In this document: positions 3,689 to 51,917 of the stretch, piece by piece
Layout of the letters: every line of letters starts with the position of its first letter
Position numbering within the stretch: position 1 is the first letter of the stretch
Source: Escherichia phage vB_EcoM_P8
Sequence record: PV390659.2
DNA length: 64,000 bases
Reading direction: 5' to 3' (one strand)
The notes under the pieces: generated by a model
What the model was told of the DNA's origin: nothing
The model's database searches: none
What the model saw: the letters and a program-made list of their open reading frames with translations, nothing else
Made by a program: the position numbers and the translations under genes

Positions 3689-5461
3689 TTAATTAACTCC
3701 AGTCGCATCAAATACACCAGGAGCAGTTGTACTCGTAACAGGTGTCATATTATGAACGACAGTATTTTTCTTAATAACATTATTAGTATTATTGATTGAA
3801 GGAGATGCTTGTTGAACAGGAGCTTGCTGTGCTTTGTTCTTTTCTATTACCTGGACTTGTTTTGCTTCTGGCGATTTAGCAGAAGTTTCAGGCTTGGCGT
3901 TAGGCTGATTTTTCTTGAGCTCTTGATAAGTAGCATCAATTTTAGAAAATCTAGCAGCAAGTTCTTTTTTAACTGCCGGTGAATTATTTAAATCCGGGTC
4001 ATCCATCCGTTTTTTAAGGTCTTCATAGGCAGCTTCAACTGATTTAACTGTTGAGTCTTTACTCATATCAGCTGAATCAGCATATTTTTCAAAGCGAATC
4101 ATCGCGGCACGCGCTTCATTAGCCTTCATTAAAGCATTTTTTCTTTCTTCAGGTGAAAGTTGCTTTAATTTTTCTTCTTCTGCTGCACGTTCTTCGTCGG
4201 TAGTTAGTGCTTCTTTATTATCAACGCCACGAATCCAGTTAGATGCACGAGTTTTCCAATTAGCAATTTTATCTAATCCTTTTGCTATCGGACCAAGGTC
4301 TCCATTCATTCGTTTATCTTGATAATTTGCAACTTTTTCCTGGTCTTCTTTATTGAGAGATGCTCCAGTAGAATTTTGGAAATTTTCTAGCGCTCTTCCT
4401 TCTACTTCATCAGCGGTATCCTTCATACCAGGAATAACTCGAAGAATTGCCGCAGATAATTTAGCCATTCCAAGCTGAATAAGTTCTCCTAAATTATAAA
4501 GAACCTTTCCAAGCCCTTCTACAATAGCTACTGTCAATCCGCCCCAATCTCCAGCTTCCCAGAATTTTTTAATTTCATCAATAGAACTAAAGATGCTCTG
4601 TAATAAAGGACCCCATGTTCCAGTTTCGCTAGAGAATTTAGTAAAGTCTGTACTAAACAAATCCCAAGCCTGTGAAAATTTATCTGACCAATATTTGAAA
4701 TGAACCATCAGCAGGTCTATTCCGACAACAACAGCCAATATCATTGCTGTCATTTTAGCAGCTTCAATAGCAGCACTGACGGTATACTTAAATAGCATGC
4801 TTGATATTTTATCAGTAATTGAAATAGATTTCTTAAATCCGAAATCAACAGTCTTTGTTAATTTATCTAAAGCTTGAGATAATTTTAAGTTAAATGCGTC
4901 TTTTTTCTGTTTTTCTTCTGGCGATTCTTGTTTAGGTTCAACTGGCTGAGGGGTAGGGAAAAAATCAGCATCAGGATCATTATTAACTGCTTCAGGAGCT
5001 GGTAATAAAGGACCCACAGATTCAGCTGTATCATCCTCAACAACTTTAACAGGAATAGCGCTTTCGACTGTGGCTAAACTAGTTCCTGTTTGTTGAATTC
5101 CGGCTGTCTGGATTTTTTGCTCGAGTAAACTGGTTAATTTATCTAATTTGCTCCCGAGTGATTCACCGATTTCTTTATTAATATTGTTGCCAATTTCGAC
5201 AGTTTCAGCAATTAACTCAGAACCAGCAGTAGTATCACTCACTGCGCTTTCTACATTGTCAATTGCTCCAATTATTTCATTCGATTTTTCTTCGACAGTT
5301 TGAGCAATTAATTCAGAAGCAGCTTGAGCATCATCCAATTTCGTAGATATATCGTTAAGTCCAGATAAAGTGTTAGAAGCGGATTTAGCCGCTTCCTGTG
5401 TTGGTTTATTATCTGAAATAACTTTTCTACGCATCGTTTGCATTTCTTGTGGCTTTTTCAT
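3689..5461 (-). CDS. 29: tail tape-measure / baseplate hub protein gp29
   Basis: 590 aa; coiled-coil-rich; size and order match T4. Confidence 0.8.
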   Translation of the reverse strand: MKKPQEMQTMRRKVISDNKPTQEAAKSASNTLSGLNDISTKLDDAQAASELIAQTVEEKSNEIIGAIDNVESAVSDTTAGSELIAETVEIGNNINKEIGESLGSKLDKLTSLLEQKIQTAGIQQTGTSLATVESAIPVKVVEDDTAESVGPLLPAPEAVNNDPDADFFPTPQPVEPKQESPEEKQKKDAFNLKLSQALDKLTKTVDFGFKKSISITDKISSMLFKYTVSAAIEAAKMTAMILAVVVGIDLLMVHFKYWSDKFSQAWDLFSTDFTKFSSETGTWGPLLQSIFSSIDEIKKFWEAGDWGGLTVAIVEGLGKVLYNLGELIQLGMAKLSAAILRVIPGMKDTADEVEGRALENFQNSTGASLNKEDQEKVANYQDKRMNGDLGPIAKGLDKIANWKTRASNWIRGVDNKEALTTDEERAAEEEKLKQLSPEERKNALMKANEARAAMIRFEKYADSADMSKDSTVKSVEAAYEDLKKRMDDPDLNNSPAVKKELAARFSKIDATYQELKKNQPNAKPETSAKSPEAKQVQVIEKNKAQQAPVQQASPSINNTNNVIKKNTVVHNMTPVTSTTAPGVFDATGVN

Positions 5462-50383: not shown

Positions 50384-50456
50384 TGGGAATTAGCCAAGTT
50401 GGTAAGGCACTGGATTTTGATTCCAGGATGCAAAGGTTCGAGTCCTTTATTCCCAG
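50384..50456 (+). tRNA. tRNA-Gln (anticodon UUG)
   Basis: cloverleaf; acceptor TGGGAAT/ATTCCCA; anticodon loop ttTTGat. Confidence 0.85.
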
Positions 50457-50457
50457 C

Positions 50458-50544
50458 GCGAGAATGGTCAAATTGGTAAAGGCACAGCACTTAAAATGCT
50501 GCGGAATGATTTCCTTGTGGGTTCGAGTCCCACTTCTCGCACCA
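50458..50544 (+). tRNA. tRNA-Leu (anticodon UAA), type II
   Basis: acceptor GCGAGAA/TTCTCGC; long variable arm; CCA encoded. Confidence 0.85.
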
Positions 50545-50549
50545 AATTT

Positions 50550-50623
<74 letters not shown>

Positions 50624-50633
50624 ATTTAATTTA

Positions 50634-50707
50634 CTCCGTGTAGCTCAGTTTGGTAGAGCGCCTGATTTGGGATCAGGAGGTCCAAGGTTCAAATCCTTGT
50701 ATGGAGA
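50634..50707 (+). tRNA. tRNA-Pro (anticodon UGG)
   Basis: D-arm GCTCAGTTTGGTAGAGC; anticodon TGG; two G-U pairs in the acceptor stem; CCA not encoded. Confidence 0.8.
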
Positions 50708-50709
50708 CT

Positions 50710-50799
50710 GGAGGCGTGGCAGAGTGGTTTAATGCACCGGTCTTGAAAACCGGCAGTCGCTCCGGCGACTCATAGGTTCAAATCCTATCGCCTCCGCCA
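50710..50799 (+). tRNA. tRNA-Ser (anticodon UGA), type II
   Basis: acceptor GGAGGCG/CGCCTCC; long variable hairpin. Confidence 0.85.
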
Positions 50800-50804
50800 G
50801 TTTT

Positions 50805-50880
50805 GCTGATTTAGCTCAGTAGGTAGAGCAACTCACTTGTAATGAGAAGGTCGGCGGTTCGATTCCGTCAATCAGCACCA
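50805..50880 (+). tRNA. tRNA-Thr (anticodon UGU)
   Basis: acceptor GCTGATT/AATCAGC; anticodon loop ctTGTaa. Confidence 0.85.
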
Positions 50881-50881
50881 A

Positions 50882-50956
50882 GGCCCTGTAGCTGGAAGGT
50901 TCAAGCAAGCGACTCATAATCGTCAGATGGTGGTTCAATTCCACCCAGGGCCACCA
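50882..50956 (+). tRNA. tRNA-Ile (anticodon CAU, presumably modified)
   Basis: acceptor GGCCCTG/CAGGGCC; anticodon CAT; position after Thr as in the T4 Thr-Ile pair. Confidence 0.75.
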
Positions 50957-50969
50957 AATTAAGAATTAA

Positions 50970-51056
50970 GGGGAGTTATCCCGTAGAGGTAGCGGTGTGG
51001 ACTGTAAATCCATTGTCATTGCGACTCGGGTGGTTCGACTCCATCACTCCCCACCA
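50970..51056 (+). tRNA. tRNA-Tyr-like (anticodon GUA), type II, with an irregular D-arm
   Basis: acceptor GGGGAGT/ACTCCCC; anticodon loop CTGTAAA and variable arm resemble bacterial tRNA-Tyr; the D-arm only folds with a 4-nt linker. Confidence 0.45.
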
Positions 51057-51060
51057 ATTT

Positions 51061-51135
51061 GGATGTGTAGCTCAATGGCAGAGCGATCGCCTGTTAAGCG
51101 ATTGGTTATAGGTTCGAATCCTATCACGTCCGCCA
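51061..51135 (+). tRNA. tRNA-Asn (anticodon GUU)
   Basis: clean 75-nt cloverleaf: acceptor GGATGTG/CACGTCC, D-stem GCTC/GAGC, anticodon loop CTGTTAA, T-loop TTCGAAT, CCA encoded. Confidence 0.75.
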
Positions 51136-51139
51136 AATC

Positions 51140-51215
51140 CGAGGCATAGCTCAGAAGGAAGAGCAAGGACCTTCTAAGTCCTAGGTCGTAGGTTCGATCC
51201 CTACTGCCTCGACCA
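51140..51215 (+). tRNA. tRNA-Arg (anticodon UCU)
   Basis: acceptor CGAGGCA/TGCCTCG; anticodon loop cTTCTaa. Confidence 0.85.
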
Positions 51216-51231: not shown

Positions 51232-51582
51232 ATGAAAGGTAATGTTTATTTAGTAGTTCATGATTTAACATTCTATTTTAATCATAATGACACTGTTATT
51301 TCTGAACGTGTAATTAATTTACTTTATCAGCATGCAGATTATGTTTATGTCGAAAACGAATATGGTCATTGGCAATTTCTCAAAAATCGTTCATTTGGTT
51401 TAGATGGTTACGAATATTTTGAACGTAAAGACCTTTTAGATAAAATTCCGTTATCTACACAATATCAAAATCATAAGTCTTTATATAAATGCCGTCCAAT
51501 TCGAAATGCTGAATCTGCGTATGAAGTAATTGATTTATGGCGTAAACGTCGTGAACAGGTTGATGCTTTAAAAGAATACTAA
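51232..51582 (+). CDS. hypothetical protein, 116 aa
   Basis: ORF with GAGGAAAA ribosome-binding site directly after tRNA-Arg. Confidence 0.5.
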   Translation: MKGNVYLVVHDLTFYFNHNDTVISERVINLLYQHADYVYVENEYGHWQFLKNRSFGLDGYEYFERKDLLDKIPLSTQYQNHKSLYKCRPIRNAESAYEVIDLWRKRREQVDALKEY

Positions 51583-51886
51583 GAAACCGGGTCGCTACCG
51601 GTAAGTCGTCGGACTGATGTTCCCTGGAGTATAGTTTCTCCCACAGTTTTACTGTGTTCTGATTCTTTACTATCACAGCAGAAACGGCGCACCGAATTAT
51701 CGATTCGAGGAAATATCTTTGCCGTAAGCCGAGTAGCGTTTTTGGCGGAACGTTCGGATATGGTCGAGATATGGCCTTTTAAAAATATTGAGTAGCGTCA
51801 ACTGCTTAATAACCGGGTTCGAATCCCGGCGTTTCGTACAAACACTTGCCTTAGCAGGTGGAACCCCGACAAGGTTGCCGCAAGGC
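51583..51886 (+). ncRNA. candidate small stable RNA locus (analogous to the T4 species 1/2 RNAs at the distal end of the tRNA cluster)
   Basis: about 300 nt with no ORF; tRNA-like T-arm CCGGG-TTCGAAT-CCCGG at 51813..51829; ends at a strong terminator. Confidence 0.35.
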
Positions 51887-51888
51887 TT

Positions 51889-51917
51889 AGCCCCGACCGA
51901 AAGGTTGGGGCTTTTTA
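51889..51917 (+). terminator. intrinsic terminator (10-bp stem, GAAA tetraloop, U5)
   Basis: agccccgacc-gaaa-ggttggggct + ttttt. Confidence 0.8.

Follow-up and report, generated by a model that had tools for sequence, protein, structure and literature searches.

The tRNA-Tyr and tRNA-Asn genes in the T2L-type tRNA array of Escherichia phage vB_EcoM_P8 and the long-connector relatives of the tRNA-Tyr

The tRNA array of Escherichia phage vB_EcoM_P8 was analyzed in a stretch of 64,000 nucleotides (nt) from sequence record PV390659.2 (hereafter the window), with a focus on its adjacent tRNA-Tyr and tRNA-Asn genes. ARAGORN called ten tRNA genes on the plus strand at 50384-51215, all of them matched by the Rfam family RF00005, in the order Gln-Leu-Gly-Pro-Ser-Thr-CAU(Met/Ile)-Tyr-Asn-Arg and with intergenic gaps of 0-13 nt. 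The Tyr and Asn genes both encode the terminal CCA, and the spacing to their downstream neighbours is 4 nt. The 1-kb array is 99.9% identical to that of Escherichia phage vB_EcoM_BMB16 (Tequatrovirus), in whose record all ten genes, including tRNA-Tyr and tRNA-Asn, are annotated. No promoter-like or terminator-like site was found within the array. The two genes and their parts, in base pairs (bp) where stems are concerned, are as follows.

50970-51056, plus strand: tRNA-Tyr(GUA), 87 nt, CCA encoded (called by ARAGORN; structure from covariation and RNAalifold)
50970-50976 / 51046-51052, plus strand: acceptor stem of tRNA-Tyr
50977-50980, plus strand: 4-nt connector UAUC (U8 A9 U10 C11) of tRNA-Tyr, from acceptor stem to D-stem
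50981-50984 / 50992-50995, plus strand: D-stem of tRNA-Tyr (C-G, C-G, G-C, U.G)
50985-50991, plus strand: D-loop of tRNA-Tyr, AGAGGUA
50997-51013, plus strand: anticodon arm of tRNA-Tyr, with the anticodon GTA at 51004-51006
51014-51028, plus strand: variable arm of tRNA-Tyr
51029-51045, plus strand: T-arm of tRNA-Tyr
51053 and 51054-51056, plus strand: discriminator A and CCA of tRNA-Tyr
51061-51135, plus strand: tRNA-Asn(GUU), 75 nt, CCA encoded, discriminator G (called by ARAGORN), with the anticodon GTT at 51093-51095
51111-51137, plus strand: 27-bp preferred SegB recognition site GGTTCGAATCCTATCACGTCCGCCAAA, from the T-arm of tRNA-Asn to its CCA plus 2 nt

A sequence-only reading of the window had claimed two tRNA genes beyond the T4 set between the CAU tRNA and tRNA-Arg, and ARAGORN called both of them, Tyr at 50970-51056 and Asn at 51061-51135. 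Both candidates were accepted by the tRNA predictors (ARAGORN and Rfam), the Tyr gene barely so by RF00005. The Asn gene had been described as a clean 75-nt cloverleaf with CCA, in agreement with the ARAGORN call and with an RF00005 score of 74.1 bits (threshold 29; E 1e-15), the best of the ten tRNAs in the array. It was aligned to RF00005 over its full length with zero non-canonical pairs flagged, and it has all the parts by which a canonical tRNA was judged: a 7-bp acceptor stem, a 2-nt connector, a 4-bp D-stem, a 5-bp anticodon stem with a 7-nt loop, and a 5-bp T-stem with GTTCRANYC. The anticodon GUU and G73, which together make up bacterial asparagine identity (PMC9976931), are both present. 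The 3' part of the gene contains the site preferred for cleavage by the T4 homing endonuclease SegB, which was defined as 27 bp inside the tRNA-Asn gene of phage T2L; weaker SegB sites lie at the 3' ends of other tRNA genes (PMC2330249). In the window, GGTTCGAATCCTATCACGTCCGCCAAA is unaltered relative to T2L. With the pattern GGTTCRANTCC...CCAR and the five preferred-site bases all matched exactly over 27 bp, it is a predicted SegB target, and what sets it apart from the weaker Ser-gene site is precisely the five bases singled out in that study (G6, A16, G18, A26, and A27).

The Tyr gene has the anticodon loop CTGTAAA and the long, bacterial-type variable arm that had been ascribed to it, along with U35 (in the anticodon GUA), A73, and G1-C72, the elements of bacterial tyrosine identity (PMC9976931). 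Its score against RF00005 was 30.2 bits, barely over the gathering score of 29. In a textbook tRNA, two unpaired bases (8 and 9) lead from the acceptor stem to the D-stem (PMC7609411); in the Tyr gene, there are four. With this longer connector, the D-arm consists of a 4-bp stem and a 7-nt loop, with the equivalents of A14, R15, G18, G19, and A21, and its loop is as long as that of the neighbouring Asn gene. As the D-arm is canonical in this register, the connector is the sole departure of the Tyr gene from the textbook tRNA.

The structure was examined in homologues retrieved from IMG/VR with a pattern that fixed the anticodon loop, parts of the variable arm, and the T-loop and left the D-arm free. 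The search yielded 53 distinct tRNA-Tyr sequences, spread over unrelated phage groups and highly diverse in their acceptor and anticodon stems, and every one of them (53/53) had a connector of 4-5 nt. All of them share an invariant U8-A9; two variable nucleotides come next, or three in some sequences, and after these C-C/U-G-U ... G-C-G/A-G. The two positions directly after A9 vary freely. In an alignment of 50 distinct homologues, the D-stem cells of the long-connector register were 100% paired, including a compensatory change from C-G to U-A, compared with 61% in the canonical 2-nt register drawn by ARAGORN, which has a C.C mismatch in 50/50 sequences. The ARAGORN D-stem (U10.G, C11-G, C12.C, C13-G) was rejected for its 61% pairing, its universal C.C, and a position 11 that varies without compensation. 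Over the whole cloverleaf, 99.3% of the cells were paired, 15 of the 24 pairs showed compensated changes, and none of 500 shuffled alignments equalled the observed covariation score. RNAalifold returned the identical long-connector cloverleaf with no structure supplied. Further D-stem pairs also showed compensatory changes, such as U-A at the first pair in SP15-type genes, CCAG/CUGG in homologue L065, and UCAG/CUGA in homologue L109. The 5-nt connector is found in the genes of phages PG7 and CR8 and in SP15-type genes.

The sequence-only reading had held that the Tyr D-arm pairs only across a 4-nt linker, and the homologues bear this out. Its further suggestion, a decaying pseudogene or an unusual functional tRNA, was upheld in the second part and contradicted in the first by the covariation and by the function of T5 and SP15 family members described below. 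Judged by the covariation, the Tyr gene is a conserved, non-canonical tRNA under structural selection. It is not a pseudogene, because the D-stem, the cloverleaf pairing with its compensatory changes, and the identity elements are kept across the family (A73 is invariant, and G1-C72 is present in 47/50 sequences) and because the T5 and SP15 members are functional.

This function is known from work on Retron-Eco7, whose PtuAB effector depletes host tRNA-Tyr: the tRNA-Tyr genes of T5 and SP15 rescue the phage, and mutations in the anticodon or the stems abolish the rescue (PMC11555353). Protection by Retron-Eco7 has been reported against T5 and SP15m; in vivo cleavage of the E. coli tRNA-Tyr separates U47 from C48 in the variable loop, while the SP15 tRNA-Tyr accumulates uncleaved, with its variable loop being required for protection (PMC12673091). 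For T5 and SP15, these experiments show that tRNA-Tyr with a long connector is produced and works by decoding. The T5 gene, located in a large tRNA-rich region with a strong dedicated promoter, matches the window gene at 84-85% identity and shares its long connector, A73, GUA anticodon, and, without any difference, its variable arm and T-arm. The sequences of the acceptor stem, D-stem (CUG/CAG in T5), and anticodon stem in T5 and SP15 differ from those of the window gene, and the SP15-type tRNA has a 5-nt connector and a variable arm longer than that of the window gene. The E. coli tRNA-Tyr (tyrT/tyrU/tyrV), a canonical bacterial class II tRNA, shares the CUGUAAA loop, GUA, A73, and G1-C72 with the window gene, as well as a long variable arm starting with GUCAU and ending with CG; in the host tRNA, however, the connector measures 2 nt, the D-stem is 3 bp long with a loop of 11 nt, and the variable arm falls 2 nt short of that of the window gene. 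No earlier description of the long connector in a phage tRNA-Tyr was found in the searchable literature, although older subscription-journal papers on T5 tRNAs may hold one.

The array corresponds to that of phage T2L, whose published cluster (EMBL AJ880101; Brok-Volchanskaya et al. 2008, PMC2330249) runs Met(CAU)-Tyr-Asn-Arg-trna.2-rnaD-rnaC without segB, and the window has the same order. Gene by gene, the identity to AJ880101 was 95-100%, with 75/75 nt for Asn, 86/87 for Tyr, 74/75 for Met(CAU), and 75/76 for Arg. The sole base difference in the Tyr gene lies in the anticodon stem (G-C in the window and G.U in T2L). In T2L, the open reading frame (ORF) trna.1 replaces tRNA-Thr, which is retained in the window. 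In T4 (NC_000866), the Gln-Leu-Gly-Pro-Ser-Thr genes are near-identical to those of the window, and rnaD and rnaC also lie downstream; however, Ile-segB-Arg stands in place of Tyr and Asn, the Ile and Arg genes are different isoacceptor sequences, and there is no trna.2 between Arg and rnaD. Homing of segB into T2L excludes a region of approximately 1250 bp with the Met, Tyr, Asn, and Arg genes (PMC2330249). The comparison confirmed that T4 has eight tRNAs and none for Tyr or Asn. The description of the two genes as additions to the T4 set therefore stands as far as their absence from T4 is concerned, but not as a novelty, as they represent the published T2L-type state. In the phage collection, the Tyr+Asn pair was found in 433 records and Ile-segB-Arg in 126, and the "extra" genes are therefore the commoner state and T4 the variant.

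The Tyr gene itself matched 1,354 phage records, including T4-like, T5-like, rV5-like, FelixO1-like, Klebsiella, and Enterococcus phages. The match in rV5-like phages is 95.6% identical and limited to the tRNA-Tyr gene itself; because it stops at the gene limits, it suggests that the gene has been exchanged between phage lineages. Among 5,426 complete E. coli genomes, 269 carry a long-connector tRNA-Tyr, with 90-95% identity, and all 273 copies are on plasmids of approximately 90-120 kb; no chromosomal copy was found in these genomes (the host tyr genes are too divergent for blastn at E <= 1e-5). In P1-like and other E. coli phage-plasmids, the gene stands beside tRNA-Asn, with a gene order and genome type differing from those of the window. 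Two of the plasmids were inspected (pZ1323HEC0016-2, L209, and pCFSAN004176P_03, L210); they are phage-plasmid-like, one of them clearly P1-like, and carry Asn-Tyr-Thr clusters at approximately 3921-4167, whereas the Tyr cassette is lacking between Asn and Thr in the reference P1 and P7.

A strict D-arm/anticodon pattern matched 75 stretches in the genomes of 185,579 species, mostly in dense tRNA arrays of Lachnospiraceae metagenome-assembled genomes (MAGs). The idea of a strictly phage-restricted architecture was not upheld in view of these 75 stretches. A solitary copy in Tahibacter adjoins an IS1595 transposase, and RtcB and a Tn916-type integrase are found close to one Lachnospiraceae cluster, so that the contexts inspected suggest mobile DNA; it is possible that some bacteria use the long-connector form natively. 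In the latter MAG (L148, 6053-7934), a Lys-Glu-His-Tyr-Ser tRNA cluster with a long-connector Tyr adjoins the RtcB RNA-ligase gene, with the integrase approximately 4.5 kb from the cluster, an arrangement that may represent a mobile tRNA supply-and-repair module. Among the tRNA arrays obtained with the Tyr pattern, two from IMG/VR (L052 and L109) and three from genomes or MAGs (L158, L184, and L203) contain predicted suppressor-like tRNAs (Pyl/CUA, "Stop") or tRNAs with four-base anticodons, a hint that uncultured phages may have tRNAs for recoding or frameshift suppression.

Records differ in how the Tyr gene is treated. ARAGORN missed the 5-nt-connector tRNA-Tyr in CR8 (L005, 160-244) and PG7 (L009, 607-691), both of which are annotated in the records. 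In Enterococcus phage EFDG1 (L008, approximately 151-235), the homologue is unannotated, and a coding sequence labelled "homing endonuclease" overlaps its first 20 nt. Labels in other records include tRNA-OTHER, tRNA-Pseudo-GTA, and even tRNA-Arg.

Codon usage was compared between mechanically chosen ORFs of the window (18,500 codons) and one 50-kb sample of E. coli K-12. Tyr codons (UAU + UAC) accounted for 4.32% in the window and 2.55% in the E. coli sample, and Asn codons (AAU + AAC) for 5.93% and 3.73%, respectively; the differences were larger for UAU (3.35% vs. 1.40%) and AAU (4.38% vs. 1.34%). The use of UAY and AAY in this AT-rich phage is thus 1.6-1.7 times that of E. coli, and this excess supports the classical tRNA-supply explanation. 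For His codons, the relation is reversed (1.43% in the window and 2.56% in the sample). Many close relatives of the phage, such as ECO07P2 (L207, 1051-1126) and also H18-H21 and H26-H27, have approximately 190 bp more between Asn and Arg; this extra DNA holds a tRNA-His(GTG) gene, giving Tyr-Asn-His in series, i.e., three of the four GUN (queuosine-family) tRNAs. With His codons less frequent in the phage than in the host sample, the tRNA-His of these relatives is not accounted for by codon demand.

We consider that both genes are functional phage tRNA genes in a T2L-type version of the T-even array, with a probability of roughly 0.85. From established T4 biology, transcription of the array would yield a polycistronic precursor, which host RNase P and 3' trimming would then process; the CCA is already encoded. 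The Tyr species would be charged by the host tyrosyl-tRNA synthetase (TyrRS) through G1-C72, A73, U35, and the long variable arm, and the Asn species by the host asparaginyl-tRNA synthetase through its GUU anticodon and G73. The two tRNAs would increase the capacity to decode UAY and AAY codons and may insure the phage against host systems that deplete them; on our analysis, both a codon-supply and an anti-defence rationale are plausible for this phage.

Several observations weigh against this conclusion. No data on expression, processing, or charging for the window phage or T2 were found in the accessible literature. T4 grows without the Tyr and Asn genes, which makes them dispensable on laboratory hosts, and the codon comparison draws on ORFs picked mechanically and on one 50-kb sample of E. 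coli. Besides the marginal RF00005 score of the Tyr gene, its RF00005 alignment starts the acceptor stem 2 nt late, with several pairs broken or flagged. The minimum free energy fold of the single sequence is not a cloverleaf (z = -0.91), a measure that is uninformative for tRNA and was left unused. In the family alignment, the invariance of the anticodon loop, of part of the variable arm, and of the T-loop follows by construction from the retrieval pattern, and most of the 50 sequences share one D-stem, so that the covariation there comes from few lineages.

The alternative that survives best concerns the reason for which the genes are kept. The Tyr and Asn genes might be maintained chiefly as counter-defence, replacing host tRNA-Tyr (and tRNA-Asn) destroyed by defences that target tRNAs, for example Retron-Eco7 PtuAB or GUN-anticodon nucleases, with the altered core and variable-arm geometry making the phage tRNA-Tyr a poor nuclease substrate. 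This overlaps with our preferred explanation and does not exclude it; as the main reason for retention, we regard it as possible but on the unlikely side. In its favour are the rescue from Retron-Eco7 by the T5 gene, close to the window gene in sequence and with the same variable arm and a long connector (PMC11555353), and the escape of the long-connector SP15 tRNA-Tyr from the cleavage suffered by the host tRNA (PMC12673091). The tRNA-His added beside Asn in relatives, in the face of the codon figures, and the confinement of the E. coli copies to phage-plasmids point the same way. However, the E. coli tRNA-Tyr also rescues when expressed from a strong phage promoter (PMC11555353), and abundance alone may therefore suffice. 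No report of Retron-Eco7 restricting T-even phages was found in the accessible literature, and the GU/CA sequence of the host cleavage site is retained in the variable arm of the window gene. The demand for Tyr and Asn codons is already a sufficient explanation. Furthermore, enrichment of GUN-anticodon tRNAs among the neighbours of Tyr was not clearly above chance in 62 distinct phage arrays: T2-like, FelixO1-like, and phage-plasmid arrays repeatedly place Tyr beside Asn, Asp, or His, but T5-like, rV5-like, and many other arrays do not. Enrichment of these queuosine-family neighbours was dropped as a claim for this uneven pattern.

A bolder form of this proposal appears more doubtful still. 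Long-connector tRNA-Tyr would be a distinct, mobile structural class, defined by a 4-5-nt connector, a compact class-I-like D-arm, and a lengthened variable arm and borne in enterobacteria by phages and phage-plasmids only. Its core geometry, not its abundance, would evade nucleases while TyrRS still charges it, and the T2-type Tyr gene with its Asn/His neighbours would be a counter-defence cassette rather than a codon adaptation.

The notion that the Tyr gene is a decaying pseudogene with a degenerated D-arm was judged highly improbable. The low RF00005 score with its mis-registered alignment, the C.C mismatch and G.U pair in the ARAGORN D-stem, and the GenBank entries reading tRNA-OTHER or tRNA-Pseudo could be cited for it, but all of these stand against an architecture that is common to 53 distinct sequences of unrelated phage groups and whose stems all show compensatory changes, intact identity elements and encoded CCA, and family members that work in vivo. 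The comparative data (99.3% of the cells paired and 15/24 pairs compensated in 50 sequences) refute this reading.

An identity other than tyrosine, be it a tRNA-Sec-like species, a suppressor, or a tRNA mischarged through its unusual core, was given hardly any weight. The top match in the first, permissive Rfam scan was indeed tRNA-Sec (RF01852), and a non-canonical connector could alter recognition by synthetases. This match was rejected, as its 34.4 bits lie under the 47-bit threshold of that family, the anticodon is GUA instead of UCA, the acceptor and T-stems are 7/5 instead of 8/5, and the D-arm has a 4-bp stem and a 7-nt loop instead of the 6-bp stem and 4-nt loop of tRNA-Sec (stem-length rules from PMC7609411). 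G1-C72, A73, and U35 fit bacterial tyrosine identity, and a change of anticodon abolishes the activity of the SP15 tRNA (PMC11555353). It is equally hard to credit that the two genes persist mainly as DNA targets for homing or recombination rather than for translation: the tRNA-Asn gene does hold the preferred SegB site, with weaker sites at other tRNA 3' ends, but this site is costly, as co-infection with T4 leads to loss of the region; the sequence that SegB exploits is a conserved motif of the T-arm, GGTTCRANTCC (PMC2330249); and the compensatory changes, including those between the Asn genes of the window and Kha5h, keep RNA pairing and not DNA sequence.

The genes and other elements flanking the Tyr-Asn pair were as follows.

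50882-50956, plus strand: tRNA(CAU), upstream neighbour of Tyr (Met according to ARAGORN and the T2L record)
51140-51215, plus strand: tRNA-Arg(UCU), T2L-type isoacceptor, downstream neighbour of Asn (ARAGORN anticodon TCT)
51232-51582, plus strand: trna.2-like ORF, 333/351 nt identical to T2L trna.2
51580-51694, plus strand: rnaD homologue (stable RNA), as in T2L
51701-51840, plus strand: rnaC homologue (stable RNA), as in T2L
51889-51912: strong terminator-like hairpin after rnaC, probably the end of the tRNA transcription unit

In E. coli, tRNA-Ile2 decodes AUA after lysidine modification. The anticodon stem-loop GCGACUCAUAAUCGU of the tRNA(CAU) and its C4-G69/C5-G68 pairs resemble those of E. 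coli tRNA-Ile2, and the AUA codon accounted for 1.52% of the codons in the window compared with 0.24% in the E. coli sample. The tRNA(CAU) is probably Ile2-like and an isoacceptor other than the T4 tRNA-Ile, from which its sequence diverges after the first 12 nt. The body of tRNA-Arg(UCU) is entirely unlike that of the T4 tRNA-Arg(UCU), which has the same anticodon; this difference fits the co-conversion of flanks in segB homing that was proposed earlier (PMC2330249).

The observation itself matters little, as the T2-type Tyr and Asn genes are already known, having been sequenced and published in 2008 and routinely annotated in hundreds of T4 relatives. The value added here is modest and lies in the coherent, mobile, phage-associated class of long-connector tRNAs to which the Tyr gene belongs. 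Standard predictors mishandle this class, with ARAGORN mis-drawing the window gene and missing the 5-nt variants and RF00005 barely accepting the window gene, and the Tyr gene should not be annotated as a pseudogene or tRNA-OTHER. The family has been exchanged among T4-like, T5-like, rV5-like, and FelixO1-like phages and P1-like phage-plasmids. Two of its members act against a retron, and T2-type phages may share this capability. A natural, apparently functional tRNA with a 4-5-nt connector provides a useful case for the study of tRNA structure and of recognition by TyrRS.

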